This document shows, in pieces, positions 1,536 through 53,260 of a stretch of DNA of 64,000 bases. Each line of letters begins with the position of its first letter. Position 1 is the stretch's first letter. The DNA is taken from contig JAYWIR010000113.1 in assembly GCA_036172245.1 (NCBI GenBank), forward strand, positions 62,001 to 126,000, written 5' to 3'. The notes below the pieces were generated by a model. That model worked only from the letters and a program-made list of their open reading frames with translations, was not told the DNA's origin and did no database searches. Origin of the DNA: Raillietiella orientalis (Eukaryota). Both the position numbers and the translations under genes were made by a program.

Positions 1536-1543
1536 TGATGCGT

Positions 1544-16600: not shown

Positions 16601-16955
16601 CGTGAGGGACGTCATCGAGTATGCTTCTTGCTTCCTGCAGAGGGCTACCCGATGGCCCCATCTAGGAAATTTGAAAATGTAACTAGAAGGCATCCTGCAA
16701 AGGATGGGCCCTCCCAGGAGATTAGTGTTATCCCTTCTTGGCCCTTCAAACTCCTTTTATTGTTTGTTTTTCTCTTTTTATTTTATTTCTGCTTTCTCCC
16801 ATATCTCCCTCCACTGCCGAGGAGAGCCACACCGGTCTGCGTCCCGGTGTCCCGGCAGTTCCGGTATTGCGTGGTGGTCAGTGGGGCATTGTACCACGTT
16901 CTGTATTGACTGTAGAAATGTTTTTAATAAACGTGGCGGCATATCCGGGTGGCAT
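13606..16955 (+). mobile_element. LINE E, 3' part (mid-EN to 3' end), degenerate, I-like lineage
   Basis: Begins FNLRLLTGEPETQENA, with SDH, YADD and CARCG. AATAAA at 16926. Confidence 0.92.
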
Positions 16956-19794
16956 CGCCGGGTTTGAACGTCAAGCCTAGCAATCCAAGTCGGCCAGCTT
17001 GCTGGACGACCAGGGTCGGGAATGTTCTTCCCCGGCGTCGGTACGTCATCTCGTGCGCAGTTCTTATTCCTATCTTTACGCCATGGAGCCCCCGGATCGA
17101 GACGCCTCTAGGCGCTTGCTTCCGGATGGCGCCCGGAAATAGGAAAGGAGGAGTCGTTAAGCCTCGATGAGCCTTTTACCACCGGCGAAATTCTCGCCGG
17201 TATCAAAAGGCTTAAGAGGCGGAAAGCTCCAGGGGAAGACTACTTGTCCGCGGAGTTCTATCAGAGCTTCGCGGAAGAGCTGGCACCCCTGCTGCTTAGG
17301 CTGACAAGGCTGATCCGAGACGAAGGCGATGTTCCCGCCTCGTTTTGGTCAGCCAGAGTAAGGCTCCTTCCGAAAGGGGAAGACTTCAGAGATTTAAAGA
17401 ACTGCCGTCCAATCACGATCCTGAATACGAACGCCAAGTTGGTTGCCGGGCAAAGGGCTTAGCGTCTGGGGCAGGTGGCAGAATCCATAATTAGCCCGGA
17501 GCAGAAATATGCTGTTTCCGGGCGAACTATGGATGCCAACCACTTCTTCGCAAGCACATGTTCGCACCTGCAGAGAAGACATAAGAAAGGGATAGGGAAA
17601 GTCGGCAACCCCACATTGGGGCCGCCATTTGGGCTAAGAAGAGACCCCGTTCGGGGAAGGGGGCAGTAGCTCTCGCAGTCGATCTTCACAAGGCATTTGA
17701 CTGTGAAGACCAGGAACTCCTCTTGGAGCTGCTGGGTCGCATCAGCTTCCCACCCTCCCTGATTTCCTACCTGCGCTCTTGCTGGCGGAATGCGATGATT
17801 ACCGTCTGTTTCAGTGGACAGAAGGTGTATGGCGTGCCATGGCGGCGGGGCATAAGACAGGGCGATAGCCTCAGCCCCCTGCTCTTTAGCACCTACTTTG
17901 ATTTGGTGCTGAGAGCGTAGAGGGTGACTTTGGCCCCCTTGCCGAGCTCGTGCCCCGGCACGCCCGCCGTAGCAGCGTACGCCGACGATCTTCTGCTCTT
18001 GTTGCCAATGTCCACCCCGGCAAAGGCGGTCGGAGACTTCTTCGATCTGCTCAGCCGCGGGACCGGACTGCAGGTTAACAGGGCGAGGTCGTCGGTTGTG
18101 CCAATAGGTGCGGCGTGGGCAGGGCAGCAGGACTGGGTCCGTCTGGGGATCCGCACTGCGAGGTGCTTCAAGTACCTTGGTGTGCCGTTGAAGGAATACT
18201 CCCCTGAAAAGCGTGGTCGAGCTGCCTCCAAAAAGTCGAGACGGCGATCGGCCCGTTCCTCGAAGGCAAGTTTCACTAATCAGAACGGGCCGCGGTTTGG
18301 AACGCCTTCGCGGCCCCCATCCTCCGTTCCTCGCTTTCTGTTTGTCCCCCACGGTGGAAACCAAATAGAAGACAAAGGACCTCCTCCGTTTCGCTCTCTG
18401 GGGCAAGGGGAGGCCCCGAGTCCCTCTGAAGGACTTGTGCGCTCCTCGTCGCGACGGCAGACTTATCCTCCTGACGCTGGAGCGCGTGGAGGAACTTCTG
18501 TGATGGCGTACCCTCGCCATCGCAGCGAAGATGTGGAGCACCATGTGGTGCGTTCCGGCTCGCCTCCTCGCCAGTCGTGTGTCCCGGTGCGAGGGACTCG
18601 CTTCTTTTCTTCTGTGCCCGGGCCGGAAGATCAGAAGTGCTGGCCTACAGCTCGGGCGCATGGCATCGTTGGCCATGGAGAACAGCAGGATGGTTTGCTG
18701 CCTTGCCAACTCCTCCGCCTGGCTGGAGGAAAATATTGGAACGTGGGCAGTGGTGAACCAGAGAAGCCACGTAACGTGGAATCGTCTCCAATGCGGCCAT
18801 TACGCCCGCTGCACTCTGAGGAATCTCTTGCAGAGTCCAGCTAGAAGCACGTGGGCAGAGACAACCTGCCTGGCTACGGCGCTGCCCTTGCTGAGGAGGG
18901 CGCTTCACAGCAGTCGGACGCCAAGGTGGCAAGTCTCCTGCTGCATCGAGGGACGGGAGAAGTTGATAAGCGGCTGGACAACAGAAGAACTGGCAGACGC
19001 CACGACCGCGAGCTTCCAGCCGGGAGGGTTTTTAAGATGGGGCGAGCTGCTCGTCATACCCAGGAATGAACTGAAGTGGCCCCCGGTGATGAAGTAATCC
19101 AGGATCCTTCCCCTCAAGTGGCAAGTGTCGGCGTTGCTCCTGTTGCACTGGGGTCTACCCTGCAACTCGCGCCGCTTCCACTGGACGAGGGGAGCTGTGG
19201 ATCCTGCGTGTGGCAGGTGCAAGGAGCTGGAGTCGCTCCCCCACCTGATTGTGTATCGTGCTGCCCTCCGACCCCTCTGGGAACGGTTCGGGATGACCCT
19301 CGGGATCCCTATGGGCAGTGCATTCAGAGACGTTCTCCGGCTCCTCTTCTTGAAGGACGTCCTGCTGCCAGCGGCAGCCCTCGCAGCCCTGTGCTGCGTC
19401 CGAGGCATCGTTGCGGCCTGGAGCAACGCCAGAAACGAAGATGTGGACGAAAACGGGAGGGACGTCATCCAGTATGCAGTGCACTTCTTGCGGATAGCTG
19501 CTCGATGTCCTCATCTGGTATATATACGGAGGGACCTCGAGGGCTTCCTTCGAAGGATGGGCCCTCCTCACAGTGACCAGTAATCCCTACCCTGCCCTCC
19601 AAACTCTTTTTTTTCTTTTTTATTTCTTTATTTTTCTTTTGGTTTTCTCCCCTCATCCCCTTTCGCTGTCGGGGAATGCCACGCCGGGCTGCGTCCCGGT
19701 GTCCCGACAGGTCATGTGCTTACGGTCGTGGTGGGGCCTTCTACCACGCATGTAGTGTTTATTAATAAACCCCCCAAGCGTACCTGGATGATAA
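16956..19794 (+). mobile_element. LINE F, 3' part (linker to 3' end), degenerate, close relative of I
   Basis: Colinear with the reverse complement of 27363-30190, with YADD and CGRCKELESLPH. AATAAA at 19764. Confidence 0.92.
19666..19748 (+). other. Structured 3' UTR RNA element: bulged stem with CUGCGU loop plus a second hairpin (representative copy)
   Basis: Pairings CTGTCGGG/CCCGACAG, ACGCCGGG/CCCGGTGT and CGTGGTGG/CTACCACG, with compensatory changes in other copies. Confidence 0.7.
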
Positions 19795-20399
19795 CCCCAA
19801 ATCCCCGGGGCGAGCGGTGCAAGCGGAACTCCTCGGAAAACTCGCGGACCGAGGCCTTAAATAGGTTGCAATCCTTCAGATTGCGGAGGGTGACGCCTCT
19901 CATTAATACGCAAGGGGGTTCCTTTGCACCTGAGCCGCGTCCAGCGCGCAGGCAGACGGCACGCGCTAAATAGGGGGTCCTTGTCGCGCGGTTACACCTA
20001 GAATATCAACCATAAATGGTCAGACAGTGCCGACGCAACTTTGCCCCGTTTGCCGACCCGTGATCACAGGTCGACGTCCAGGAAGACGTGTTAGATGCTG
20101 CTGACCATTTGCGGGAGATCCCCTAACAAGTTGCGCGTGCGCATGGCGACGCACAACTCGTTAGCCGCCCGTTCCTGTGCGAGTGGCTCACCTGATAGCT
20201 TGCGGAAACTGTGGTCTTCCGCTATCAGGTGAGCCATGAGCACGTTCGCTTCCACCAATCAGTCGCGCTTCAGGGTTTCTAGGAACGCCTTACGTTCCGG
20301 GTACCTGCTAGTACCGCTTGGAGCTTACACATTTGTTACGAAGAAATCGATCGTATCGGACCACCTGAGAATCAGCTGGCCGGGACTTGCGACGGCGCT
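19795..20399 (-). mobile_element. LINE G, old EN/linker fragment
   Basis: The minus strand reads GQLILRWSDTIDFFVTNV...HVFLDVDL...SDH...SVREFSEEFRLHRSPRGFG with many stops. Confidence 0.85.
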
Positions 20400-20491
20400 C
20401 TGAGAGGGTGGACGTGCTTTTGTGGTGCTCCGCGTTTTTCTCGCGAGTGTTTTCGGAGTTTTCAGGGTTGAGCGGTTGTTCCTGGGCAGGG
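20400..20491 (+). promoter_or_regulatory. 5' UTR / putative internal promoter with GGACGTG at +11 (representative copy)
   Basis: The motif recurs at 10 element 5' ends. Promoter function is inferred. Confidence 0.55.
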
Positions 20492-22159
20492 ATGCCCGAG
20501 GACGCCGCAAAGACGGCGGAGGGGGGCGAGCGAGCCTCGTCCCCCCAGCCCATGGATGTGGGGGCCATCTCCCCCACGGAATCGTCCCCCGCCCCGGCGA
20601 GGGCTTGGAGCGCGGTGGTGGCGGCGCCTGCGCCGCCCCCCGCACAGGAACAGCGGGCCTACATGGCCGACGGGTATAACCCGGCCTTGTTATACAAGGT
20701 AGGTGGCCTGTACTCCCCCGCGGTTTTGCGGTCGTTCGCGGCCGAGTTTAAAAAATTAAAAGTCCCGGAGGACGAAGTCCTCGGACTTTCGGTATGGAGT
20801 GGCGGGCAGCTGGTTGAGCTGAACTGCAAGTCTGCAGGGATGGCTCAGCAGCTGCTCCGCCTGCCGGTCACTGTGAACGGGAGAAGGATCTTCCCGTTCA
20901 CGGCCGACAATTCGATCGTGGTGCATTTGACCGGCATAACGATGCGCATGGCAAAGAGCGCCGTGCGAGAATCGTTAGAGAAGTTCGGGACCGTTCACGC
21001 GTTGTGGGCAAAACCTAATGTCCTTGGTTATACCAGGGCATTTAGTGGTTATGCCGCTGCGCGCGTGACGGTACGTGCCGAGGGTGGGCTACCCCACAGA
21101 CTGCAGGTCGGGGAGGAGGAGATCGACCTGTGGTATGTGGGGAAACCCGTATACTGCGGCTTTTGCCAGGTGTCGGGGCACCTGAAGAAGAAATGCCCCA
21201 ACATCGTGTGCTTGGGCTGTGGGGAGAAGGGGCACATCAGGCGGATGTGCCCGAACCGAAAAAAATCCGTTCCGTCAGGCGCGAGAAAGGATGAGACGCC
21301 GAAGGAAAAGGACCGAAGCCAACAACTGGCAGAACCCCGCCCTGCCGACCAACCCGCTACTCAGGCATCCACCAGCGAACAACCAGCTGGAGAAAGCGCC
21401 GAGAACGAGGAAGGTTGGCAAAAGGTAGAAAGGAAGAAGCCCCAGAAGAAGGAGGCAAAAAAGATAAACAAGTTGGCGCCGAAAAAGCAGAAACCGGTCG
21501 TCCGCGCTTGTACGGTGAAGATCGAACGCGTCTCGATCGCCAGAGCCGTGAAGAAAGTAACGGTAAAGGCGATCGATACCGTCGATCCTGAGCCGGTCGT
21601 GCCCGCAGTGACGTCACCATCAGCTGACGACAATGCCGTTCCGGCATTGCCAGCGAAGGAAGTCTGCGCGCCGATCGATGAAGCCGCCCCTGTCGCGCCT
21701 GCGCAAAGCGTCGGTGCGGAAAGCGAGGAGGCGGCGCGCATAACGGACGCGACCTTCGCGCAGGCCGCGGAAGAGCTGGCAGCCATGTTACGGCGGCCTG
21801 CCAAGGCCGAGAAGAAGGCCTTGAGACGACCGGCAACGGTGAAGGGCCCGGAAAATTCCGAGTCCGAAACCGAAGCCGGTTGTTCTACTTCCGCAGCCGT
21901 GCCGAAGAGGAAGGCTGGCAAGAAGACCGGTTGCCCGAGACGGGTCGCCCCTCCGCAGGTGGAGGAGGCCATGTCCTCGGGCACGAAGGAGGAGGCAATG
22001 TGCGTCGCGCCACGCGACCCCTCTCCGATCCGTGTCTCGAAAGCCAGCCCCATGGAAGTCGCTGTGGACGACGTGCTCCCGTGTGAGCAGCCGACCGTCG
22101 TCACGGCCGCCAACAAGCCGCCTCCCGCAAGGGAGGAGGCCGCCTCCACCCCACAATAA
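20492..22159 (+). CDS. A2 ORF1, 555 aa nucleic-acid-binding protein (RRM-like region, 2 CX2CX4HX4C, long K/E/P/A-rich tail)
   Basis: ATG CCC GAG GAC matches the MP(E/D) start of C, I, N and Q. The upstream TTG start in the ORF track lies outside the element. Confidence 0.92.
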   Translation: MPEDAAKTAEGGERASSPQPMDVGAISPTESSPAPARAWSAVVAAPAPPPAQEQRAYMADGYNPALLYKVGGLYSPAVLRSFAAEFKKLKVPEDEVLGLSVWSGGQLVELNCKSAGMAQQLLRLPVTVNGRRIFPFTADNSIVVHLTGITMRMAKSAVRESLEKFGTVHALWAKPNVLGYTRAFSGYAAARVTVRAEGGLPHRLQVGEEEIDLWYVGKPVYCGFCQVSGHLKKKCPNIVCLGCGEKGHIRRMCPNRKKSVPSGARKDETPKEKDRSQQLAEPRPADQPATQASTSEQPAGESAENEEGWQKVERKKPQKKEAKKINKLAPKKQKPVVRACTVKIERVSIARAVKKVTVKAIDTVDPEPVVPAVTSPSADDNAVPALPAKEVCAPIDEAAPVAPAQSVGAESEEAARITDATFAQAAEELAAMLRRPAKAEKKALRRPATVKGPENSESETEAGCSTSAAVPKRKAGKKTGCPRRVAPPQVEEAMSSGTKEEAMCVAPRDPSPIRVSKASPMEVAVDDVLPCEQPTVVTAANKPPPAREEAASTPQ

Positions 22160-22167
22160 ACGCATCA

Positions 22168-25713: not shown

Positions 25714-25979
25714 ATAGGATCTAGAGGACCTCTCCACGCGCACCGTGATCCCTTCCTCGCCCTCCCACCCCTACAACATTTGTTCCCCCCCACATTTGAA
25801 CTTTTTGTTTCTTTTTGTTTTTCTTTATTTCCCATCCCCGCGCATCGGAAGGACCTCTCCGGCACGGAGCCGGTAACCAGCAAGCTGTTTTGGAGTGGTG
25901 AACCTTCGGGTTCGCCACGCGACATTTTTCTGTAATTTTATTTCTATGAAATAAATTCCCCGCCACATCCGGGTGTGAA

Positions 25980-27362
25980 CAACCCGTTGCGGCGCGAACC
26001 CCGACGCCGCGACAAAGTCGCGAGCTTAGCGTGAGCAGCGACGACCGGGACTTCAACAAGGCGGCGGAAGAGTTGGCAGCCATGCTCCAGCAGCCTCCCA
26101 AGGCCCAGAAGAAGGCCTTGAGGCGTCCGGGTGAGGCAAAAGGACCGGAGACTTCCGAGTCCGAAGCCGAAGCCGGCAACGCTCCGGCTGTCGCTCTCCC
26201 GAAGCGCAAAGCGGGACGCAAGGTAAGCAACCCGCGGCTTTCCGAACCTCCACCGGCGGAGGAGGAAATGCGGTCGGACCACGACGACGGGGAGGCGATG
26301 TCCGCGAGGTCTCGCGACTCCTCGCCGGACACGTCCCTGGCCAAGCAGGATCCTCCAACCACCACCACAACCTCCGACGGACCGCCTCCTTGCGAGGAAA
26401 AGCCCGTCGCAATGGATACACAACTCTTGCCTCCTGAACAGCAGGCGGAGGACGGTAAGGAAGCACAATAAACACACCAACGCGTAAACTCTCCTCCTGC
26501 CGGCGAGTGCGCGTAATCTGTTGGAACGTAAACGGGTTGCGCGACGACGGCAAGAGGAGAGAAGTGGCCGCCAGCCTGCGGGACTTCGACCTGGCGCTTC
26601 TGCAGGAGACGCACGTGCTCCACGCTGGAGAGGCCCAAGAAATCGAACGGATCGCAGGCGGGCGGCTCATATACGAGGACGGGAGAGACCACACCCGCGG
26701 TGTGGCTTTCATGCTGAAGCCAGCCGTCGTTAATGCGCTGCGCGACGTGCACTTCGACGGTATAGGTAAAATCGGGCAGCTTGTTGCCAAGTTGTCCGAC
26801 GCGATCGACCTCGTCCTGACCAACGTGTACGCGCCCGGCACGAGCCACAGGCGCGGGGAACGCACTGCGTTCTTCGAAGGCCTGCGGCGAGATTGGCTGG
26901 CCGAAGCAGACATGCGAAAGGCGCACCTCATTGCCGGGGACTTTAACGTCCGCCTGCTGGCAGGTGAGCCCGACATTCGCGCACAGCTGGTCAACGAGAT
27001 GTGCGCTGCCATGCACGCGCGCAACTTGTAGGTCGGTGACGCCGGGACGGAGACGAGGATCGACCACATGTTCCTCGACAACCACTTGTGTTCGCAAGTG
27101 GGAAGTCGAGGGGCAGTTGCATCCGAACTTTCCGGCCATACCCGGCTCGCGCAAGAAATACACCCGCGCGGTAGATGTCCACCCTTCACAGCGTGGCGTT
27201 TGCCAGGGGACTAATTGCGCCTCGAAGGAGCAGCGAAACATCTTCGCTCGTTCCTGCAAGGCTTCCATCTGCAGTCGCTCGCGGACTGGGACGACCTGAA
27301 GAGCTCAGTCCGCGAGTTCTGCGACCAGTTTCCCCTGAACCGTCTTCCTCGTGGCTTCGGCG
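25980..27362 (+). mobile_element. LINE H part 1 (ORF1 tail + EN), A-like lineage, interrupted by I
   Basis: FNKAAEELAAML, WNVNG...GDFN, ending at LPRGFG. Confidence 0.92.
27353..27362 (+). repeat. TSD of I, left copy GGCTTCGGCG (right copy GGATTCGGCG at 32942-32951)
   Basis: 9/10 identity, and the host frame ...GFG|GFGDG... is continuous. Confidence 0.85.
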
Positions 27363-30300
27363 TTGCCACCCGGGTACGCCCGGGGCGTTTATTTTTAAAA
27401 ACTCTACACTTGCGGTACCAAGGACTTATGCACGGGACCTACCGGGACACCGATACGCAGTCCGGCGTGGCACTCCCCGGCAGCGAAAGGGGATGGGGAA
27501 AAACAAAAATAAAAACAAAAAGGCAAATAAAAAAGTGAGGTTGGGGGGCAGGGAAGGGATCACTGTTCGCTGAGAGGAGGGCCCATCCGTTGAAGGAAGC
27601 CCTCGAGGTCCATCCGTAGATTCCCCATTTGGGGCCATCCAGCAGCTCTTCGCAAGAAGCGTTGGGCATATGGGATGACATCACTCGCGTGTTGACCCAC
27701 TCCTTCCTTGTTGGTGTCGCTCAATGCCGCCACGATGCCTCGGACGCAGCACAAGGCTGCAAGGGCTGCGGCTGGCTGCAGGGCGTCCTTCACGAAGAGG
27801 GGCCGAAGAACGTCTCTAGGGGAACTTCCCGTTGGGAGACCGAGGATCGTCCCAAACCGTTTTCAAAAAGGACGAAGGGCAGCACAGTCCAGAATAAGGT
27901 GGAAGAGCGATTCCCGCTCTCCGCACCTGACACAAGCTGGATCCACAACTCCTCTTGTCCAGTGAGAGCGGCGTGTGTTGCAGGGTAAACCCCAATGCAA
28001 CAACAGCAACGCCGTCTCTTTCTACTTAAGGGGCAGGATCCTGGATTCCTGAAGAAGCGGGGGCCACTTCAGCACATCCATAGGGATGGCCAGAAGCTCG
28101 CCCCATCTTCTTAGTCCTCGCAACTGGACGCTCGGGGTCGTGGCGTCTGCCAGTTCTCCTGTTGTCCATCCGCTGATCAACTATTCGCGTCCCTCGATGC
28201 AGCAGGAGACTTGCCACCTTGGCGTCCGGATGCTGTGCAGTGCCTCCTCAGGAAGGGCAGCGCCGTAGCTAGGCAGGTCGTCCCTGCCCACGTGCATCTT
28301 GCTGCACCCTCCAGGAGATTCCGCAGCGTGCAGCGGACGTAGGGGCTGCATCGGAGACGATTCCACGTCTCGTGGCTTCTCTGGTGAACCACTGCCCACG
28401 TTCCAATATTCTCCTCCAGCCAGGCGGGTTAGTTGGCGGGGCAGCAAACCATCCAGCTGTTCTCCTTGGCCAATGTTGCCATGCGCCCGAGCAGTAGGCC
28501 GCATCTTCGCATCTTCCGGCCACAGCTGAGAAGAAAAGACGCGAGTCCATCGCACCGGGACACGCGGCTGGCCAGGAGGCAGGCCGGAGTGCACCAAGGG
28601 GTGCACCACATCTTCGCTGCGATGGCGAGGGTTCGCCACCGCAGCTGCTTCTCCAGTCGCTCCAGCGTCAGGAGGCCAAGACCGCCGTCCCGACGCGGAG
28701 CGCACAAGTCCTTCAGTGGGACTCGGGGCCTCCCCTTGCCCCAAAGGGCGATACGGAGGAGGTCCTTCGTCCTCTTCTTGGATTCCACGGTGGGGGGGCA
28801 AACAAAAAGCAAGGGGCGGAGGATGGGGGCCGCGGAGGCGTTCCAAACCGCGGCCCGTTCCGGCAAGTGAAACTTGCCTTCCAGGAACGGGCCGATCGCC
28901 GTCTCGACTTTTTGGAGGCAGCTGGACCACGCTTCCTCAGGGGAGTAGTCCCCCAACGGCACACCAAGGTACTTGAAGCACTTCGCCGTGGGGATCCCCA
29001 GACGGACCCAGTCCTGCTGCCCTGCCCACGCCGCACCTATTGGCACAACCGACGACTTCACCCTGTAAACCTGCAGTCCGGTCCCGCGGCTGAGCAGATC
29101 GAAGAAGTCTTCGACCGCCTTCGCCGGGGTGGACATTGGCAACAAGAGCAGAAGATAGTCGGCGTACGCTGCTACGGCGGGCGTGCCGGGGCACGAGCTC
29201 GGCAAGGGGGCCAAAGTCACCATGTACGCTCTAAGCACCAAATCAAAGTAGGTGCTAAAAAGCAGGGGGCTTTGGCTATCGCCCTACCTTATGCACCGCC
29301 GCACCGGCACGCCATACACCTTCTGTCCACTGAAACAGACGGTAATCATCGCATTCCGCTAGCAAGAGCGCAGGTAGGAAATCAGGGAGGTTGGGAAGCC
29401 CATGCGACCCAGGAGCTCCAAGAGGAGTTCCTGGTCTACACAGTCGAACGCCTTGTGGAGAACGACTGCGAGTGCTAGGGCCCGCTTCCCTGCCCGGGGG
29501 TCCCTTCCCAGCCCGGCTGGCGGCCCCAATGTGGGGTTGCCGACTTTCCCTATCCCTTTCTTTTCTCTTCTCTGAAGGCGCACCCATGTGCTTGCGAAGA
29601 AGAGGTTGGCATCCATACTTCGCCCGGGAACAGCATAACTCTGCTCCGGGCTAATTTCGGATTCTGCCACCTGCCCCAGACGCGAAGCCCATAGCCCTGC
29701 GATCAACTTGGCGTCCGTAGTCACGATCGTGATCGGACGCCAGTTCTTTAAATCCCTGAGGTCTCCCCCTTTCGGAAGGAGCCTCACTCTGGCTGACCTA
29801 AACGAGGCGGGAACATCGCCTTCGTCTCGGATCAGCCTGATCAACTAAAGCAGCAGGGGTGCCAGCTCTTCCGCAAAGCTCTGAAAGAACTCCGCGGGCA
29901 AGCCGTCTTCCCCTGGAGCTTTACGCCTCTTGAGCTTTTTGATAACGGCGAGAATTTCGCCGGTGGTAAAAGGCTCGTCGAGGCATTCCATCTCCTTTTC
30001 CCCTATTGCCGGGGCGCCATCCGAAAGCAAGTGCGGACAGGCGTCTCGATGCGGGGGCTCCCTGGCGTAAAGGGAGGAATAGAAACTCCGCACGAGATGC
30101 CGTACCGACGCCGGCGACGAACATTACCGGTCCTGGTCGTCCAGAAAGCTGGCCGACCCGGATTGCCAGGCTTGGCGTTCGGCTTCGGCGCGGTACTCGG
30201 CCAAGCGACGGACATTAGGGGTTCTTTCGTACCTACGAGCCTGTAAATAGGCCCGATGGTGGCGAGCACCCTCGCCTAATCCGGGGTGCAGGCGAACCAG

Positions 30301-32941
30301 GGGGAACTGCTCACAGAACTCGCGGACCGATTCCTTAAAAAGGTCCCAGTCCTGGAGATTCCGGAGCGTAACACCTCTCAGGTATTCGCGAAGGTATTCC
30401 TTCGCACCTGAGAGTCGCGTTCATTCCCCCGGCTGACGCCAATCCCTGGATGGCGGTCCCTTGTCAAGAGGCCGTATCTCGAAAATTAACCGGGAATGGT
30501 CCGACAACGTCGACGCAACCCTCCCCCGTTTGCCGACCCGTGAACACAGGTCAGCGTCGAGGAAGACGTGGTCGATGCTGCGGACCATTCCCCTCTCACC
30601 CGCGAACAAGTTGCGCGCACGCATGGCGGCGCACAACTCGTTCATCGCGTTCTCTTGTGTTTCTGGCTCACCTGTTTGCAGACGGAGATTGAAAACTCCC
30701 GCTATCAGGTGAGCCTTCCGCACGTTCGTGTCCGCCAGCCAGTCGCGCTTCAGGGAATCCAGCAGCCTGGTACGGTCGCTGTATCCCTGTTTACCGCTGG
30801 GGGCGTACACATTCGTGACGATCGGTTCGATCGAGTCGGACCAGCTGAGAATCAGCTGACCGACACGACCGTCGTCATCGAAGCGCACGCCCTCCACGGC
30901 AGCGTCGATGGCCGCCTTCACGAAGAACGCGACCCCGCAGGTGTTGCGGAGGCCGCACCGCCAATACAGCCGACCCCCCGCGATCGTCTCGATCTCCTGG
31001 GCGTCTGCCGCGGTGATCACGTGGATCTCCTGCAGCAGGGCCAGGTCGAGCTCACGCAGGGTGTCGGCCGTATCTCGCCTGTTACCGTCGTCGCGCAGCC
31101 CGTTGACGTTCCAACAGGAGGCGCGAAACCGACGGCGACTGGCGAGCCCAGGTGTTACTCCTGGGAAGATGGCGATGCGGCTTCCGCCACCTGTTGGGGC
31201 GGGACTCTAGGTGGAGGAGGAGGGTCAGGCGCTGCGTCCACCTGGTCCCCCTCCTCCATCGGTAACGGCGCGTCGAGCGAGTCACCCTCAGGTGGGGTCG
31301 CGCCTACCTGTAGGCCCTCCTCCATGGGGGTGGCCGGCTCGACGGCTTCCGAGCGTGGGAGTTCCCCCTCCGGGATTCCCACGCTACCGTTACCTTCCTG
31401 CTTCTCCTCCTCTCTGGTGGAGGAAAGGCGCCTCCTGGGTTTCTGGGACTTGCGTCCCGACTTCCTGGGGGGTGCCTCCGAGGAGGAGGATGCACTTCCG
31501 GCCCTGAGGTCCGACTCACCTGTAGGGGCCTTTTTGGCGGGTGCCGGCCTTTGCACGGCCTTGCGCGAGGTTTTCCCACGCAAGGCTAGCGTGGCCGAGA
31601 GTTCCTCCGCCGCCTGAGTGAACGCGGCGTCCTCGGCTTCGACGGTAGCTATTTCGCGCGGCTCACCCTCTGTGTAAACAGAGGGTTCGCCGTCGCGAAC
31701 CTCGGGCGCGGCGGAAACGGCGAGAAAAGGCTCGTCGCCCCGGGTGGCAATCTCGGGAACGGCTATGTGCTCCAGCGCTACCGTACACTCGCGCATGGTC
31801 TTAGAGCGCGGCCCAGGTGTTTTCGCCTTGCCGGCTGTCTTTTTTACCGGTTTTGCGGGTTTCGCGGGGGCACCTTTTTCTTCTTCCTGGCCTTGACCAG
31901 CTGCCAGCCGTCTTGTTCTCCCGCGACTTCGGAGGGTTTTTCATGCGACGCCTGTGTGGCAGGAGAAGGGGCTAGCGGCTGCTGCCGACCAGTATCTCTT
32001 TTTGGTCTTTCGACCAGTTTACCGCGTTGTGCCTGTGCTTTCTTTGCAGCAGGCGGCACCGGAGTGGGGCGTTTAGGGCAAACGCGGCGTACGTGGCCCT
32101 TCTCCCCGCATAAGTGGCACACAATGTTCGGGCACCGCTTGCGCAAGTGTCCTACTGCATTGCAGTAGCCACAAAAGCGGGATTTCCCCACGTACCAGAG
32201 GTCTACGACTTCGCCATTGACCACTAGTTTGTGGGAAAGCCCACTCTCCTTCACCATCACGCGCGCGGCGGCCTGCCCTCCGAAAAGGCCATCGTAGCTA
32301 TCGTAGATTGTGGTCTTTGGCCATAGCGCGTGAACATCTCCATACTTTCTTTACTGATCACCAACCGCAGACCGCGTCATGCGGCTGGTGATCCCTGTCA
32401 GATGGACCACTACGGAGCGGTCCATCGAGACTGGTAGGATCTTGCGTCCGTCCACGTTCAGCGGGGAGGTTATCAAGCTTTGCGCCAAGGTGATGTCCTT
32501 GCAGACAACCTCGACGCGCTGACCCCCGCTGAGCACGGATAGACCGTCAAGGTCCTTTTCCAACACGTTGGCGTTCTGCAGCGCTTTCGAAAAAGCGCGT
32601 GCAGTTCGTCCGTCAAAGAGATTGCCTACCTGGTAGACCAAGCTGGGCTTGTACCCAGCTGCCCGGTAGACCGCCATCTCGGCCATGGTTTCCGCGCTCG
32701 GCGCGGCCGCCATGGCGCTCCAGCTCCTCGCTTTGAGCGGCGAGGGCGATTCCGGGACGAACGCCCCTGATTCTGTAGGCTGTAGGGGTGGGCAAGTCTC
32801 CCCCACACCTACCTCCATCGTGGTGTCCTCAGGCATCGCTGCCATCGGACACCAACGATGTTCCACACCAAACAGCACAAGAAAAACCCGCTTCCTGTCG
32901 ACTCACTCGGGAGCGAAGGAAGAACACGTCCACTCGCCAAG
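27363..32941 (-). mobile_element. LINE I, full length (5.58 kb), degenerate ORF1 32836-31155 and ORF2 ~31155-27560, inserted antisense into H
   Basis: GGACGTG at 32931-32925, knuckles CGYCNAVGHLRKRC/CHLCGEKGHVRRVC, EN and RT motifs, AATAAA + hairpin, and a 10-bp TSD. Confidence 0.95.
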
Positions 32942-35285
32942 GGATTCGGCGATGGGCTGATTAACGACCGGGCATACCACCAAGCCCGTCTTTACTCTAG
33001 GACTCCCGACGTTCGACGCCTGGCGGAGTATAAAGCTAAGGCTGAGCGACAGACCTGGCAATCCGGGTCCCCAGCTTGCTGGACGCCCAAGGGCAGGAAT
33101 GCTCAGCTCCGGCGAGAATAAACCGCATCCTGCGGGACTATTACTCCTCCTGGTACGCGCGGAGAACAACAGAGCGCGCCGTGGTGCAGCGCTTGCTGCC
33201 GCAAGGCGCCCCCGCGCTGCAGGAGGAGCAGGCACATGAACTCGCGGAGCCTTTCTCGATGGCGGAGATCGTCTCCGCCATCGGAAAGCTCCGAAAGAGG
33301 AAAGCACCAGGGGAAGACGGTCTGCCCGCGGAGTTCTACGGAGGCTTCTTGGCGAAGCTGGACCCCTGGTGCATCGGCTTTGCATGCTGATCCGAGAACA
33401 AGGTGACGTCCCTAAATCATTCCGGACAGCTACAGTGCGTCTCCTGCCGAAAGGAGGAGACAATCGCAACGTACGCAACTGGCGTCCCATCACAGTAGTG
33501 TATGCGGATGCGAAGTTTCTTGTGAAGCTTTGGGCTGAGCGACTGGGACGGGTGGCGGAATCAATGGTGAGTCCGCAGCAGACATACTCTGTTCCCGGAC
33601 GAAGCATGGAGGCCAACCTATTCCTCGCCAGTACATGGTGGCAGTTTCAACAAAGCGAAGACCAGTGAGGTCAAGAGAATCCTGGATTTTCCTCTGACCA
33701 GTAAGGGGACGCCCTTCATAGAATAGCCGCGTCCGGTGCCCTTGCGGTCGCAGTCGATCTGCGTAAAGCGTTCGATTGCGTCGACCAGGAACTCCTTCTG
33801 GAGCTCCTGGAACGCTTGGGATTTCCGGCCGTCTTCCGGGCTAACCTGCCCTCCTGCTGGCGGTTCGCTGTAATAAACATCTCTTTTAGCGGTTGGCACG
33901 TGTACGGCGTGCCGGTTCGCCGTGGCATAAGGCAGGGTGACAGATGAGCCCCTGGCTCTTCAGCATCTACTTCAAGCTGGTGCTGAGGGCATACAGGGAG
34001 ACTCTGGCAACCCTGCCAAGCTCGTGTCCCGGCACGCCTGCCGTGTCGGTCTACGACGATGACCTTCTGCTCCTGCTTCCCCGGTCCACCCCGGCGTCGC
34101 CGCCTGAAGATTTCTTTGAGTTGCTGCGCCGCGGGACGGGCCTCGAGTTGAACAGAGAGAAATCTTCCATCGTTCCAACATCACCACTACTTTTAAACAA
34201 TACGGCGTGGGGCGGACGGCCGGACTGGATCCGCATAGGGATCCCCACAAGCAGGTGCTTCAAGTACCTTGGCGTTCCGTTGGGGTCTTCTGCGTTGCAG
34301 CTGGTCCGACCGTCTCCAAAAGGTGGAGTTGGCGATCGGCACGTTCCGGAACGGCAAGTTTTACTTGCAGGAGCGGGCAGCGGTGTGGAATGCGTTCGCG
34401 GCCCTCCTCCTTCGCCCCTTACTTTTTGTTTGCCCCGCCCCTCCCATCATACAGAGACGGACCAAAGCCCTCTTGAGGACTGCCCTTTGGGGCACAGCGA
34501 GGTCGCGAGTCCGATTGAAAGACTTGTGCGCTCCACGCAGGGATGGTTGCTTGGGCCTCCTTACGTTGAGCGCATCCAACTACAGACAACACTTCGGAAT
34601 TCAGCCCTTGCGGCTAGCTTATGTATGACGCCATGGTGCGATCCGGCACGGCTCCTCGCCAGAAGAGCGATCGGCTGCAAAGGATTGTCCTCGATCCTCG
34701 TGGCCTACGAGCGCAGCCTCTGCAACTGAGGCCCCGATTTGCGCCAGATGGTCGCCCTGATGAGGGAGAATACCTGGATCTCCTGCATCCCCGCGAACTG
34801 CACTGCCTGGCTTCAGAAGAAAGCTTCCTCGTGGGCTAAGATCAACGGCACGAGCGAGGCGGAATACAACTGCCTACGACGAGGACCGTAGGCTCGACAG
34901 CCGCTGCAGGAGATTATCAACACGCCCCGGAAGTTCCTGTGGGCTTCTTTTAGCCCCCTTGCCCCCGTTCTGTCCTCCCTGAAAAACACTAGGAGCAGCA
35001 ATGAGCGGGCATCGTGGGAAGTGTCCTGCCTCATCCGAGGCAGGAAAAAACCTTTAAAGGCGTGGACGACTCGGGAGCTCACGGACGCTGCCACCCCGAG
35101 CGTCCCGCCTCACGGACTTGCGCGCTGGGGAGAGCTGCTCGCAATACCTCCGGAAGAGGTGAAGTGGCCCCCAGCGTGTTGGGATTGCGGCACACTTCCG
35201 TTGAAGTGGCAGGAGACGGCGTTGCTATTTCTGCACTGGGGACTATTAAGCAGAACACTCCTGTCTTGCTGGACAAGAAGAAGGT
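32942..35285 (+). mobile_element. LINE H part 2 (linker, RT, part of the C-terminus), 3'-truncated
   Basis: GFGDGLINDRAY..., KAPGEDG, WRPIT, YDDD, LPLKWQETALLFLHWG; no zinc finger or 3' UTR. Confidence 0.9.
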
Positions 35286-35349
35286 GGAAGGACACAGTGT
35301 TTCCCCTCAGAAAACATCTTTTGAAACACTTTATTATCTAATTTTTGTA

Positions 35350-35642
35350 AAAAGTTTGAATAATAAATGTCCCTGAATATCCTGTTGACAAACTTTGGCT
35401 GCAGCCGAGCATTAATGGCCAGCATCATCGAGCAGACAAGCCGCTCCGGACTGCCAAACCCGGCTCTCGACCCTGGTCTTGTAGTCCGCCAGACGCCGCA
35501 CGTCCGGGCATCGGGAGAAGGTAAGCGCCTTCAGATAGGATCTGCTGTTCGCGACACCCTTTTTGAAGCCGCGGGGTAGCAAACGCAAGGGGAACCGGCA
35601 GCAGAACTCGCGGACTGCCCTTTTCAGATCGTCCCAGTCCTC
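35350..35642 (-). mobile_element. LINE J part 2 (linker), 3'-truncated
   Basis: EDWDDLKRAVREFCCRFPL...WQSGAACLLD continues PGFAIRELE at 41185. Confidence 0.88.
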
Positions 35643-43993: not shown

Positions 43994-46900
43994 TGCAGCG
44001 TTATTGTGGAGCCTATATCCGATTGCTGCAAAAAAGAACTCGCCGCTACCGACGACAACCCCTCTGTAGACTCTGTCCACAGCGAGGGGAGCGAGCCGCC
44101 GGCGGCGTCCGTCATCGACACCACCATCGATGACGTAGCCTGAGCGCGAGCCGCAGAGGAGCTATCTACCTCGTTGCAGCCGGTTACCTCCAAGGCAGTC
44201 AAGAAGGCAGTAAAAGGTCCGGCCTCCCTTCAGGATTCCCCGTATCCGACCCCGAGGTGTAAACCGGAAGCGCAGCCTCCGTCTCCACGGCACCCCGCAA
44301 GAAGGCTGGACGTAAGTTCACAAAGGCGAGGAACCTCCTCTCCCCCGTCGAAGGGAAAGAGATGGCTACCGCAAGCGATGGTGCCATGAGCGTGGGAAAC
44401 TCGCCGGACATGTCGCCCGAGAGACTCCCACGCGCGGACACGGAGGGGATGGAGGGAATAGAGGACGAACAGGTTCCTCAGGTGCCTGAGAAGGCCAAAA
44501 CTCCCATGGGCATCCCGCCCTCCTCGCAAGAGGCGGGCTCCCCCACACCTTAATCTTCCCAGCAGTAATGCCGGGAATCTCCTTCCACCATTGTCTGCTC
44601 ATCGCCGTTTGGAACGTGAACGGCATGACAGACGCCGGCAGGAGACGGGACATGGCCGCCCTTCTGAAGTCCTACGACCTTGCGCTGCTGCAGGAGATCC
44701 ACGTGATCTCTGCAGAACAAGCGCAAGAGATCAAACGGATCTCCGGAGGGCGGCTATGGTATAGGTGTGGGAAACCGAAAAGCTGCAATGTCGCCTACCA
44801 TCTACGACCAGCCGTCGAGGCCGCGGCTCCGGACGTGCGGTTCGATGATCACGGTCGTGTCAGCCAGCTGACTCTCAGGTGGTCCGCCTCGATCGATCTA
44901 ATCGTCACGAACGTGTTCGCACCGATTGGCACGGACCTGAGAAACAGGAGGGCTAGGTAAGAGTTTTTCCTTGCCCTCCGGCGCGAATGGCTGACCGAAG
45001 CAGACGTGCGGAATGCCCATCTGGCTGCAGGCGATTTCAACTTTCGCCTGAAACCAGATGGGCAGAATCCCGAGAGTGACCTACTCAACGACGTGTGCAT
45101 GGCATTGCACACCGTTAATTTCTTGGCCAGTGCACCGAGGATGGAAGGCAGCATCGACAACGTGTTTCTTGACGAGCACCTGTGGCCTCGCGTGGGCAGG
45201 CGCGGCAAGATACCGTGCGAGCTGTCCGACCATCGCTTGCTAGTTTTCGAGAACCATCCGCGCGACAGAGGTCCTTCCTCATCAGCGTGGCGTCTCCTAA
45301 GGGAATGACTGAAGCTCCTGGACGCGGCGGAACATCCCCGCACGTTCATACGGAGCATCAGGCTGCGGACACTCCAGGATGGAGACCGCTTCAGGCGGTC
45401 GATCCAGGAGTTCAGCGACCAGTTGCCTCTGCACCGCCTTCCTACGGGTTTTCGGACCGGAGTCCGTAACGAACGTGCCTATCTGCAGGCCCGTCGTTAA
45501 GCCAGGACCCCCAACATCCGCAGGCTGGCGGAATACAAAGCGGGAGCCAAGAGGCAAGCCTGGCATTCCGGATCGGCCAGCTTGCTGGGCGATCAGGGCC
45601 AGGGGCACTTTGCACCCGCCCAAATCCGTGGCCTGCTGCGGAGTTACTACTCCTCCCGGTATGACAGGGCATCTCCGGAGAGGAACGTTTCACGACTCCT
45701 GCTTCCAGAAGGCGCTCCAGCGGGAGCAGGAGAGAAAGACCCTCGACGAGCCTTTCACAATGGACGAGATCTTCTTGGCCATCGGAAAGCTCAGGAGGCG
45801 CAAGGCTTCAGGGTAGGACAGCCTGCCCGCGAAGTTATACGAAACAATCGCAACTGAGCTTCCTCCCTGGTACAGCAACTCACCTTGCTGATACGCGAGA
45901 CAGGTGACGTTTTCGCCTCGTTTCGTTCGGCTAAGGTGCGGCTCCTTCCTAAGGGATTAGATCTGAGGAGCATGAACAACTGGCGTCCCATCACAATAGC
46001 GCATACGAACGCCAAGTTGCTTTCTAAGGTTTGGGCAGAGCGTCTGGGACGAATTGCCAACATCTACATCAGCGCGGAACAGACATATGCTGTTCCCGGG
46101 CGAAGCATGGAATCGAAATTGTTCCACGCTTCCTCCTGGCTTGAGCTCCAACAAGAAAGGTGCTTGGTGCGCAGCCGGAATTCCGGTGCGTGCGCCGGCA
46201 AGTGGTCGGACGGTCGGGTGGGGGAGGGAGCCCTTGCGGTCGCTATCGACTTCCGGAAAGCAATCGATTGCCTCGACCAGAATCTCCTTCTGGAGCTTCT
46301 GGAACGCTTAGGCTCCCCTCATTAGTAACCTATCTGCGCTCCTGCTAGCGCGACGCGCTCATCAACGTTTCTTTCAGCGGGCAGACCGTGCACGCCGTGC
46401 CGGTGCGACGCGGGATCCGGCAGGGAGACAGCCGGAGGCCCTTCCTCTTCGGTACCTACTTTGAGTTGTTACTGAGAGCGTACAGGGAAACTCTGGCGCA
46501 CCTGCCGCACGACTGTGCCGGTACGCCCGCCGTTTCAGCATACGCGGACGACCTTCTGCTACTGCTCGCTATGTCCTCCTTGGCTTCGGCGGTCGAGTTC
46601 TTCGACCTGCTTCATGAGGGAACCGGACTTACGGTGAACAGGGCGAAGGCGTCCGTGATGCCAGTTGGTGCGGCGTGGGCAAAGCAGCAGGACTGTGGCC
46701 GTTTGGAGATTTTCAAGGTGAGGTAATTCAAGTATTTCGGTGTACCGTTGGGGGACTACTCTTCTGCGGAAGCGTAGTCCGGCTGCCTCTAAAAAGTAGA
46801 TACGGCGATCGGCCGGTTCCGAGGCGGCAGTTTTTTCCTCCCTGAACGTGTCGCAATTTGGAACACGTTCGCTGCTCCTTTCCTCCTTCCCCTGCTTTTT

Positions 46901-50026: not shown

Positions 50027-52049
50027 ACATGCGAGCCTCTGAGATCCTCGTGATCTCCTGGACGTTTTCCGCGGTCATCACTATGATCTCCTGCAGGTGC
50101 GCCACGTCGAATTAACGCAGAGTTTTGGTCGTATCCATTGCCACTTTCCTAAAACTAGCAACAGGGCTCACCTGTTGCTGTCGTCACTCAGCCCGTTGAA
50201 GAACCAGCAGGTTTCGCGGATCATACGGCGACAGGCGAGCCCTGTTGCTAGTTTTAGGAAAGTGGCAATGGGACTCCCACCACCTGGTCGGGCAAGACGC
50301 TAGGAGAAGGGGGTTTGTCGTTTACCACTTACTTCTCCTCCATTGGTCCCGAGTCGTCTGTAGGGCCATGCAGAGGAAGAAGGTATTCGCCCACCTGCTC
50401 TTCTTTCTCCATGGGGGTCTCCAGCTGCACGGTGTCAGAGATTGAGAGATTTTCTACCTCCTCTATCACGCTGCCGGCTTTCTCCTTGGGTGTCGGTTCA
50501 TCCCTCTCCTTGTTGGTCCAGATGCGCCTCCTGGGATTCTGGAAATTGCGTGTCGTCTGCTTTGGTGACGCTTCCGCGGAAGACGCCCTTAAGGCATCCG
50601 GATCGGCCTCACGTACCTCCGTAGCCTTCCTCGCAGCCGGCCTTCGTTAAGATTTCTGCAATTTCTAATCACGGCTTTGCAGCTCAGCCGCGAGTTCTTC
50701 CACCGTTTTTTGGAAAGCGGCCTCCTCGATCGCGTCGAGCGCGTAACGCGGTTCTTCCTCTGTTCAAACAGAAGGTTCGGCATTGTCCGTCGCGGCTTTG
50801 GCAAACGCGAAGTAGGAAAAACCTCTCCCGGTGGCGGCATCGAGTACCCCCACACGCTCTAAAGTCACCGAACACACGCCGAGTTTTTGGCAGCATGGTT
50901 CTTTTACGCGTTTCGTTTGGGACTCACCGGTCTTTATGGCGGCTGTACCGTCTGCCAGCCTGCGCAATTACCAGCATCGTATGGTGTTTCCGCAACTGAC
51001 GTTTACTAGCAGTGTTTATAAACCGGCTGCTGTCTTTTGACATCCTTTGCCTGTTTCAAGGCATAGCCTTCTCCCCCCCGGTTTATTCTTTTCCTTTTTG
51101 GCATCAGGTAAGAGCGGGATGCCTTTCCTAAGGAACGCTTAACAAATGTGGCTTTTATTTCCGCATAAGTGGCATTCGATGTTGAGGCATCGGTTTTTCA
51201 AGAGTCATGTGGCATCGCAATCGCTACACTACTTGGGCTTTTCAACGGAGCAAACATCGACTTTTTCTTCGCCAATGTTTAGTTTGTGCGGAAGCGCACC
51301 ATTCTTTAATATTGTAACACGGGCAGCGGCCATCCCACCGAAAAGCCTTCCGTACGTTCGGAAGACATCAAGTGTGGCCCAATACTCGTGCACATTACCG
51401 TGTTTTGCCAACTCCTCATGGACTCCAGTCTTGCCCAATCGAAGTGTCAAGCCTGTGAGGTAGACCACGACGGAGCGGTCCTTCATCACATGGAAGATCC
51501 CACGGCCGTCCATCGTATTGGGGATGTTCTTTAGGCGCTGCGCCAGACTTTCCTCCCTTCAAGTTAGTTGCACTCCCTGTCCCCCACTGAGGACGGAGAG
51601 GCCCTCAAATTCTTCCTTCCTCACGTCGAACCTTTGCAGCTCTATTTAGAAGGAGCGCGCAATTTTCTCATCAAATACACTGCCTAACTTTCAGAACAGA
51701 GACGGTTTGTAACCGCTGTTCTTGTAGGCATTTCGCTCCGCACCTGCAACCGTGGATGGTACACTAACGACGGGTACTCCAACTCCTCGCCGCTGGCGAA
51801 GAGTTACGCGAAGGTGCGGTTGCCCCCGATTGCAATGAGGCATGTACCCTGGATTACGTGGGGGCGCATGCCCCTACTTCTATGGGTGGAAGACAGCAAG
51901 TCGCCTCTCCTTCCCCAATTTCCATCGCGGTTTCCTCAGGCATTCCTGCCATGGGACACCGGCTCTCCCACACACCTGACAAAACCACCAAAAAGCTTTC
52001 CACTAACTAGATCGCGGAGTGATGCCAAACCATGTCCACTCACTAGAAG
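50027..52049 (-). mobile_element. LINE N, 5' part (5' UTR, heavily degenerate ORF1, start of EN)
   Basis: GGACATG at 52037-52031, ATG CCT GAG GAA, DRSVVVYLTG...LPHKL, and knuckle remnants. Confidence 0.88.
50135..50271. repeat. 41-bp inverted repeat (50135-50175 vs 50231-50271, 1 mismatch)
   Basis: CCATTGCCACTTTCCTAAAACTAGCAACAGGGCTC(A/G)CCTGT occurs on both strands. Confidence 0.9.
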
Positions 52050-52661
52050 CACACAAGTAAGATTGAATCCAAACTGTGCCAGGTGTGGGGTACGGGAATC
52101 CCTTCGGAACTTCATAGTGGACTGTGTTGACTTCCGTTCTCTTTGGAAAGGTTGCAGTAGTACCATAGGGATCGTGGAAGGTAGCCCTCCCAGAGACGTT
52201 ACTTGGCTTTTCTTCTTGCGGGACTCCCTGTAGCCAGCCATCGTGGTAGCAGCGCTCAGCTGCATCCGCGTTATTTTAGCCGCTTGGAGTAAAAGCCGCC
52301 GAAGCAGAAGATGTTAACGGAAGTGTTGTTTTGGAGTATGCAGCTTGCTTACTGCGAATAGCACACTGATGGCCTTACTTGAGAAATCTGCACAAATACC
52401 TCGTGGGCATCCTGCAAAGGATGGTTACTCCACGCAGCGGACAGTGATCCCTTCCTGACCGTCCAAAGAACTATGGTTTTGTGTTTTCAGTTTCCTTTAT
52501 TTTTATTTTTATTTTTCCCATTCCTCTCCGCTCACGTGGAGTGTCAAGTCGGTCTTCGCACCGTCCATACGGCAGCTCCGTCTCGCTTTTGTCCGTGACG
52601 GGCCGTTGTATCGCAAGTACGGAAGGTTTATAATAAACGTTCCGGATTCACCAGGTGAAAA
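52050..52661 (+). mobile_element. LINE O, 3'-terminal fragment (zinc finger + 3' UTR), I/E-like lineage; right edge of the large nest
   Basis: NCARCGVRESL, T-rich UTR, and terminus AATAAACGTTCCGGATTCACCAGGTGAAAA. Confidence 0.88.
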
Positions 52662-53260
52662 CGCCGAACCGCCAAAAACGTGTTTTTCCTGCGCTACGAA
52701 CACTCTTGTTCTGGATGTTTTTTTTTCTTGGCGTTAGTGTGATTGTGTGGAACATGGTCGGTGTCTCTTGGCAGAAATTTCCCAAGACGCCAACTACCGA
52801 CCGGGCTTCGATCCTTGGACGTCCGTACGCGCGTCGCCGCGCTAATTGAAAAATATATGAAACGTGACAGACAAAGCTGCTTAGCTTAGCCGGTGACCAG
52901 GAAGTTGAATCGCGTAAAGCCGCAGCACCGGCCGCGAGCAGCGTGGACCTCCCGGCAGCGGCTCTGCGAGAAACGGGTGGCAACGTGTCCTTCTGGAGAT
53001 CACAGCGTTTAACCAACACCGTAGACGCCACAGTTGCTTTGTATTTCTGATTTCGGAGATACGAGGGCGCATGCATGGGTGCGGAGCAGCTTGGGCCAGT
53101 TGGTTGAGAAAACAAGTCACCTTTCGGTTTAAGGTTCAGCCGTCATTTCACTTTATTGATGCAGGAGCGGCTCCGAAGGTATCCTTGGGAAGCTGTTCTC
53201 AAGTGATCGAAGATTTCGTGATACCTCATTCTTGTGCTCGGCTTCTTGTCCGACAAATCT

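Follow-up and report, generated by a model that had tools for sequence, protein, structure and literature searches.

A LINE lineage of Raillietiella orientalis that appears to insert at an antisense Gly-Phe-Gly coding site carried by other LINEs

Where long interspersed nuclear elements (LINEs) lie inside one another without spacer DNA, the question arises whether each copy landed at random or whether some lineages seek sites carried by other LINEs. A stretch of 64,000 nucleotides (nt) from Raillietiella orientalis (GenBank assembly GCA_036172245.1, contig JAYWIR010000113.1, positions 62,001 to 126,000 of the forward strand), hereafter the window, raises this question. Similarity maps delimit in it a spacerless LINE-in-LINE nest of ~52 kb (positions 1 to ~52,780 of the window), i.e., a cluster built by insertion into existing copies. 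A first-pass annotation had proposed that one lineage, comprising the elements E, F, I and O, targets a CGCCGAA(GCC) site inside LINEs. On balance, the I lineage (I, F and, loosely, E) appears to be a target-specific LINE with an apurinic/apyrimidinic endonuclease (APE-type), its main target being the antisense of Gly-Phe-Gly (GFG) codons, CGCCGAA(G)CC. The preferred site probably lies in the linker between the endonuclease (EN) and the reverse transcriptase (RT) of other LINEs, reading ...CAT|CGCCGAA(G/T)CC in element orientation.

Element I (27363..32941, minus strand) is a full-length copy of 5,579 bp, mapped by tblastn and blastn and with its junctions read, which lies antisense in host H. 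This host is a Z-lineage LINE, 73% identical to the intact element Z (20400-25980). Its left part (25981..27362, plus strand) covers the end of open reading frame (ORF) 1 and ORF2 up to the GFG codons (blastn match to Z 1378-2664, 73.5%), and its right part (32942..35392, plus strand) covers ORF2 from the GFG codons to H's own 3' end (Z 2656-4945, 72.7%), which adjoins element M in antisense. Z coordinates 2656-2664 overlap on both parts: the left part ends ...CTT CCT CGT GGC TTC GGC G, and the right part restarts GGA TTC GGC GAT GGG... As the first-pass annotation had stated, I is bracketed by a 10-bp target-site duplication (TSD) and stands antisense directly after the P-R-G-F-G codons of H. 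The left copy (27353..27362, plus strand), GGCTTCGGCG, comprises the GFG codons of H plus 1 nt and, in I orientation, reads CGCCGAAGCC directly after I's 3' end. The right copy (32942..32951, plus strand), GGATTCGGCG, is identical to it at 9/10 positions, and there the host frame resumes (G-F-G-D-G-L-I-N-D-R-A-Y). Since the bases outside the duplicated 10-mer differ, the TSD is exactly 10 bp. The pre-insertion site, in I orientation, is ...CAGCCCAT|CGCCGAAGCCACG. The element itself had an ORF1 with a CCHC knuckle and an ORF2 with an APE endonuclease and an RT, now broken by frameshifts and stops; Pfam recognises Exo_endo_phos (E=1.5e-9), RVT_1 (E=3.8e-7) and zf-CCHC (E=3.3e-6) in the pieces.

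Element F (16956..19794, plus strand) belongs to the same lineage and extends from the A-G-F-E-R-Q codons of ORF2 to the 3' end, its upstream part lying outside the window. Its 3' end adjoins host G (19795..20399, minus strand), a fragment from the endonuclease domain of a diverged LINE in the wider I clade, which ends at its P-R-G-F-G codons. At the junction (19794) G reads ...CCC CGG GGA TTT GGG G, and the flank in F orientation is CCCCAAATCC, which agrees with the motif at 7/10 positions. F and I therefore occupy the same nucleotide, antisense, in G and in H (i.e., the first base after the G-F-G codons), as had been noticed before, and the two hosts do differ, with 60.0% identity over 603 nt. 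One of them is related to the inserting lineage, as G clusters with E and I (support 1.000) and is 72% identical to each, and the other, H, belongs to the Z clade.

The possibility that the F/G and I/H junctions descend from one duplicated insertion was checked. In the 240 nt next to the junction, G and H are identical at 147/232 aligned nt and F and I at 182/224, and the similarity between the hosts shows no local rise. As divergence between the hosts far exceeds that between the inserts, a single duplicated junction is excluded and two events are required. Both of the closest members of the lineage, I and F, are hence independent copies at one nucleotide of a repeated target, in what is a very small sample. 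By arithmetic, the chance that two junctions in a 5.6-kb target agree by accident in both nucleotide and strand is ~9e-5 per pair (1 in ~11,000), or ~0.004 over the 45 pairs formed by 10 host-mapped 3' junctions. F and G were also considered as one element with an inverted 3' part, which is ruled out by position along I (G stops at coordinate 2667, F begins at 2752-2762) and by identity to I (72% for G vs 85% for F).

Coincident junctions here number only two, and the nest around them is heavily rearranged, with several neighbours not bracketed as in a simple nest and with Z lacking a TSD between unrelated flanks. This would leave room for an explanation without lineage-specific targeting, in which the GFG region is fragile or favoured (through structure, chromatin or repair), or in which coincidence was combined with rearrangement or gene conversion. 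We nevertheless consider it very unlikely, given that strand, nucleotide and inserting lineage are the same in two hosts 60% identical, that the host similarity stays level at the junction, and that the junctions of B, D, K, H, Q and Z all lie at other positions.

The membership of the inserting lineage was assessed with an alignment of the RT region of 12 copies, which yields four clades. I, F and E form one of them, with nucleotide identities of 92% (I-F), 86% (I-E) and 84% (E-F); the others are Z and H (81%), K and N (81%), and B, D and Q (66-70%). Over longer stretches, I is 85.3% identical to F (2,832 nt) and 77.8% identical to E (3,282 nt). Of the lineage first proposed, E, F and I thus hold together, whereas O is a distant relative only. 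In its last 600 nt, O is 62% identical to I, 61% to E, 60% to F, 57% to P, 55% to K and 50% to Z, while the corresponding identities of I are 64% to E, 62% to O and 60% to P; O thus belongs to the wider group as a remote relative, not as a close sister. The four 3' junctions quoted in the first-pass annotation were all found where it had placed them (E at 16955, F at 19794, I at 27363 on the minus strand and O at 52661), as were the 3' flanks quoted for P and for its element S, called T here. All recognisable 3' ends consist of AATAAA, then 24-25 nt, then GT and 1-6 A's, with no long poly(A), and the better-kept ones carry CCCGG-N5-CCGGG within these 24-25 nt.

The distant member O (52056..52661, plus strand, start approximate) is a 5'-truncated 3' fragment of ~600 nt. 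Its 3' end, ...CCAGGTGAAAA, is followed by the 10-mer CGCCGAACCG (52662..52671, plus strand), which is 8/10 identical to either copy of I's TSD. After the 10-mer comes V (52672..52780, plus strand), ~110 nt resembling the 5' untranslated region (UTR) of the I lineage, the similarity stopping near 52780. V reads CCAAAAACGTGTTTTTCC...TGTGTGGAACATGGTCGGTGTCTCTTGGCAG where the 5' end of I reads ACGTGTTCTTCC...GTGTGGAACATCGTTGGTGTCCGATGGCAG, at equal offset from the 10-mer. The local score between them is 38, compared with a mean of 16.5 and a maximum of 26 for shuffles (0/200 reach 38), and I's 5' end is the best match among six 5' ends tried. The earlier view that O lies in non-LINE DNA is hence not upheld.

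We read the 10-mer as the common target, or TSD, of two successive insertions, with O and V lying head-to-tail on one re-used target. The arrangement O, CGCCGAACCG, V has the copies separated by the target only, which is the outcome to be expected if the TSD of an earlier copy recreates the target on its upstream side. CGCCGAA[T/C]C stands immediately before each of the two I-like 5' ends in the window, those of I and V. As the 10-mer of O is flanked by an I-like 5' end, it could represent a further GFG site and not a separate context. The 5' end of O adjoins the 5' end of element R, so this corner of the nest is rearranged.

Read contigs were searched for further junctions. Run X1 (share of words 0.31) gave 903 contigs and 34 joints; runs X2 and X3 gave only low-complexity matches at a T-rich tract (19606-19648). 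Among the X1 joints listed, 30267 is connected to 32956, with the strands opposed, in one contig of depth 5.2 whose shorter side has 110 letters; the two positions are homologous and lie directly past the GFG codons of I and of the right part of H. This is suggestive of an I-like 5' end with the 10-mer by the GFG site of a more I-like host, which would be a further locus whose host belongs to the I family, and is taken as a lead rather than counted. The joints 27360->35497/35498 were also considered as extra junctions, and are instead read as uninterrupted relatives in which the alignment switches from H to M.

Element E (13604..16955, plus strand), the third member of the clade, ends in ...CCGGGTGGCAT and adjoins F in sense orientation. 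Its junction inside F reads ...GGGTGGCAT|CGCCGGGTTTGAACG, and its 3' flank (16956..16965, plus strand), CGCCGGGTTT, is formed by the codons (R)-A-G-F of F itself, which lie ~35 codons further downstream than the GFG site. In an alignment of 10 sequences at this site (nine LINE copies and F's flank), I has CGC GCC GAA GCC GAA (R-A-E-A-E) and is alone in containing the perfect 10-mer, E itself has CGC TTC GGA TTC GAG, and F has GCC GGG TTT GAA. It is thus correct, as had been pointed out, that CGCCGAAGCC is present in sister I where E's flank aligns. The case for E sitting at a motif site is weaker than had been claimed: the flank begins with CGCCG, but F's sequence, which is ordinary lineage variation, matches at 5/10 positions only, and E's site therefore shares only CGCCG with the target of I. 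A 105-nt deletion in F that would make E's flank a sense GFG site was considered and rejected, as E has the same G-F codons there. Element T (61005..62788, minus strand) is 70% identical to I and has an I-type tail, ...GTGTGGCAA. It is inserted antisense after the N-T-D-A-K-L-I codons of the RT domain of host Y (60960-61004), with the flank CTATCAAC. Related tails can hence accompany different targets.

These flanks bear on a second alternative, namely that the word CGCCGAA(GCC) is itself recognised, in sense or antisense and inside or outside LINEs, the GFG site being merely its commonest carrier. The flanks of I, of O/V and of E all begin with CGCCG, and E's site is not homologous to the GFG site and falls exactly where I has the perfect 10-mer. 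The Z lineage offers a parallel, with CAACCCG at junctions in two non-homologous hosts. The background of the word was counted on both strands of the window (128,000 positions), where CGCCGAA occurs 17 times, CGCCG 270 times and the perfect 10-mer three times. Among the flanks of the wider group (I, F, E, T, O and P; n=6), 3/6 begin with CGCCG and 2/6 with CGCCGAA, while T (CTATCAACTT) and P (CTTCCCCGTG) are off the word. Leaving out I, the source of the word, 2/5 begin with CGCCG (chance of two or more ~4.5e-5, by arithmetic) and 1/5 with CGCCGAA (chance ~7e-4, likewise). Still, CGCCG, with its 270 positions, cannot be sufficient alone. Furthermore, the agreement at the E junction, CGCCGGGTTT, is the 5/10 noted above, the 10-mer of O adjoins an I-like 5' end and is maybe another GFG site, and two of the three perfect 10-mers, together with all 13 one-mismatch sites outside the TSD of I, are empty. 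Recognition of the word as such is therefore rather unlikely. The idea of a lineage-specific target inside LINEs is carried by the two independent hits, the TSD and the tandem, whereas the part of it by which the word is read wherever present is weak.

Several observations weigh against a GFG-specific lineage, to which we now return. The window holds only two GFG-site events and one tandem pair, and 8/10 of its GFG sites are empty, the occupied ones being those of G and H. Among GFG sites the perfect word is found in H only; those of Z and Z' (CACCGAAGCC) and of B (CTCCGAAGCC) are one mismatch off and empty, and G's CCCCAAATCC, which departs at 3/10 positions, is no closer to the motif than they are. 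The two empty perfect copies of CGCCGAAGCC lie in I's own ORF2, in sense at codons R-A-E-A (30181..30190, minus strand), and in the RT region of element N (46582..46591, minus strand). E, of the same clade, sits in sense at another site with 5 nt in common with the motif, and T combines an I-type tail with a quite different target. The small 3' hairpin is no better than in shuffled sequences (z -0.8 to -1.0) and is absent in E, F, O and P, and it was rejected as a recognition element. The X1 contig joining 30267 and 32956 is known from its joint coordinates, not from its sequence, and our choice of the endonuclease as the reader of the site, over the rest of ORF2, ORF1 and the RNA, is an inference. 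Taken together, the data fit a preferred site with some tolerance, not a word struck wherever it is present.

The equivalents of the GFG codons in the lineage itself also vary. In I (30271-30285) they encode G-L-G, GGATTAGGCG, with the antisense CGCCTAATCC; in E they encode G-F-D, with the antisense TGTCGAATCC. These departures from the preferred word, seen in two copies only, could lower self-targeting.

What is shown directly, namely the junctions, the TSD, the O/V arrangement and the fact that both GFG hits are independent, would be accommodated by the following mechanism. The endonuclease would nick the sense strand of the host LINE just after GGCTTCGGCG (GGCTTCGGCG^A), and the freed 3' hydroxyl would prime reverse transcription at the start of the short A tail, behind the terminal GC-rich 3' segment. 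The opposite strand would then be nicked 10 bp upstream, producing the 10-bp duplication, which would restore the site upstream of the new copy. A later element could then land there again, and the outcome would be a head-to-tail pair parted by the 10-mer, as in O, CGCCGAACCG, V. Repeated use of LINE-borne sites would presumably build the gap-free nest. Target choice in APE-type LINEs is described as set mainly by the endonuclease (PMC4494074), and this is reported as shown for R1Bm (PMC1919474).

An alternative to endonuclease choice, raised in the first-pass annotation, is that read-through or 3'-terminal RNA pairs with the nicked target, as in R1-type elements. The CGCCG that directly follows the tail of E, I and O might then derive from the flank of the donor copy, and co-transcription with the target is said to strengthen specific integration of R1/R2-type elements (PMC4494074). 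The copies, however, stop 24-25 nt after AATAAA with 1-6 A's, which is the normal cleavage and polyadenylation distance, the 10-mer of I consists of host codons and is duplicated on the 5' side, and the last 25 nt of the element contain no stretch complementary to the primer ...TTCGGCG-3'. With tails ending at this distance and an RNA 3' end that apparently lacks a match to the target, read-through pairing finds no support, and we regard it as highly improbable.

The surroundings of these elements are as follows. The nest ends at ~52,780 and is followed by a non-repeated stretch to ~56,400 and then by further LINE pieces. GC content is ~58-63% for the nest, against 49-54% for the unique DNA that follows it. 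The ~3.6 kb of unique, lower-GC DNA at 52780-56400 is possibly the edge of the LINE domain; for 52662-56450, Pfam and Rfam scans gave no match, and no similarity to itself or to the remaining window was found.

The elements have two ORFs, ORF1 with a CCHC knuckle and ORF2 with an APE-type endonuclease, an RT and a weak zf-RVT. Pfam scans of 16 ORFs recovered Exo_endo_phos in three, RVT_1 in four, zf-CCHC in two and zf-RVT in one. In Z, both frames are open (596 and 1,208 codons, stop to stop), and ORF2 matches Exo_endo_phos (E=3.4e-14), RVT_1 (E=6.5e-21) and, slightly below the 27.5 cut-off, zf-RVT (26.9 bits). Z' (1-3302, minus strand) is 97.5% identical to Z, and zf-CCHC is present in ORF1 of both. 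EN-RT order, CCHC ORF1, TSD and 5' truncation are all found, i.e., the features of an APE-type LINE with L1/Tx1-like architecture. A protein search with the whole Z ORF2 gave six distant matches (23-29% identity, best 29%), unnamed or generic; its C-terminal third gave no match, and an atlas protein search gave generic EN-RT clusters only. A metagenome scan for the 3'-end pattern of E and I returned 119 loci, none of which has blastn similarity to the window, i.e., chance matches.

The Z lineage seems to have a word of its own, CAACCCG, which occurs 13 times in 128,000 positions; its site type is written GGCTTCGGTG^AGGGTG. The 3' flank of Z (25981-25993), CAACCCGTTGCGG, lies in the apparent ORF1 of H, and the 5' flank of Z' (3303-3321, minus strand), ...TTCAACCCGCCGC, lies in the endonuclease codons Q-L-F-N-P-P-P of host C. 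Among the X1 joints listed, one contig (25986->20400) runs from the Z 3' end through CAACCC and CCGC to the Z 5' end, and is read as tandem Z copies ~10-11 nt apart, parallel to O and V. Neither Z nor K shows a clear TSD at its junctions. The intact Z is flanked on the 5' side (20383-20400) by G, antisense, in endonuclease codons near residue 113, and on the 3' side (25981) by ORF1 of H. Its lack of a TSD may reflect recombination between two Z copies or a deletion.

Other junctions in the window were also read. The 3' end of D (13600-13610) adjoins E in sense, in the codons of the endonuclease motif G-D/V-F-N, with the flank TTTCAATCTCCG. B (9482) and Q (~50025), of the same RT clade, are both inserted antisense into endonuclease-coding sequence, B in host C and Q in host R. 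A common nucleotide for the two was considered and rejected, as their junctions are ~27 nt apart, after ...A-Q-E-I and ...E-A-R-M. The 3' end of P (...AAGTGAGAA, 58286-58310) runs directly into the 5' end of LINE W (CTTCCCCGTGTCCTTCTAGGGAGCGGACGTGG), and the 5' terminus of R (52030-52075, minus strand), CTTACTTGTGTGCTTCTAGTGAGTGGACATGG, is nearly the same as that of W. This junction of P and W, seemingly without spacer, might have arisen by template jumping between RNAs during reverse transcription.

A broader reading extends targeting to several lineages: a guild of related LINEs, their endonucleases each retuned to a short coding word of fellow LINEs, would have built the nest. The words would be the antisense GFG word CGCCGAAGCC for the I lineage, CAACCCG for the Z lineage, and the RT codons N-x-D-A-K-L for T. 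We put this forward tentatively, as a proposal with somewhat less than even chances, in its assignment of words as in its account of the nest.

How does the I lineage relate to known systems? Among solved structures, the nearest to its endonuclease is the human L1 endonuclease (7n8s, E=1.3e-6; 1vyb, E about 1e-6). The 16 structure matches with E <= 0.01 comprise entries for the human L1 endonuclease, two of which are named just LR1 and LTX, together with bacterial and archaeal exonucleases; R1Bm and TRAS1 are absent by name among them. Besides being nearest in endonuclease sequence, human L1 shares the EN-RT domain order, the TSDs and the 5' truncation, but it has a loose TTTT/AA preference and a long poly(A), whereas the elements here have 1-6 A's and a GC-rich site. 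R1Bm, TRAS1 and SART1 resemble the I lineage in their precise insertion at one nucleotide, with an APE endonuclease that cuts both target strands (PMC1919474); they differ in that their targets are ribosomal DNA (rDNA) or telomeric repeats.

Tx1L of Xenopus and the Tx1 clade are similar in being APE-type LINEs with sequence-specific insertion into repeated DNA, including transposons. In the paper concerned (PMC4494074), which describes the clade as animal-specific, its members include Keno, Kibi and Koshi and the crocodilian Tx1-Mar, Tx1-8_Crp and Tx1-4_AMi, and the transposons targeted include piggyBac Tx1D, Mariner-N4_AMi and long terminal repeat (LTR) retrotransposons. Copies flanking one another at a common target are also described there, and a family is called target-specific when more than ~20% of its flanks, genome-wide, have the same sequence. 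In contrast to these elements, the I lineage has as its target a motif in the coding sequence of other LINEs, some of them from its own wider clade.

Zepp of Chlorella and Coccomyxa and ZeppL-1 of Chlamydomonas and its relatives are, according to the available excerpts, L1-type LINEs that form gap-poor clusters by self-insertion, so that self-targeting nests as such have already been described (PMC8226300). The Zepp clusters of Coccomyxa are richer in GC than the genome, 61% vs 53% (PMC3446292), a contrast like that between nest and unique stretch here. In the excerpts available of the Zepp accounts (PMC8226300, PMC9940879, PMC3446292, PMC11005252 and bioRxiv 10.1101/2025.03.28.645958), a nucleotide-level target, a strand rule or a TSD was not found. 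Furthermore, Zepp clusters consist, in these excerpts, of one family (Chlamydomonas) or a few, whereas at least four RT clades are interleaved here. The resemblance is thus one of cluster habit and GC contrast only. A limited search of the open-access literature found no LINE with a coding motif of fellow LINEs as its fixed target. The present case is small, comprising two coincident hits, a single TSD and a single tandem pair.

The known targets of target-specific LINEs are rDNA, telomeres, small nuclear RNA (snRNA) genes, microsatellites and a few transposons, and LINE-only clusters of the Zepp type are the centromeres of some green algae. If a LINE lineage does have a conserved coding motif of other LINEs, its own relatives among them, as its fixed target, this would provide a nucleotide-level mechanism for the spacerless growth of such clusters, and would reveal that retrotransposon lineages compete with or parasitise one another. 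Several naturally retargeted APE endonucleases from close relatives would also become available, in which the reading of DNA could be studied. Were the guild real, its insertions would kill rival or sibling copies and spare host genes, and its lineages would jointly form, and keep renewing, a chromosomal domain made of LINEs alone, which might be a centromere.

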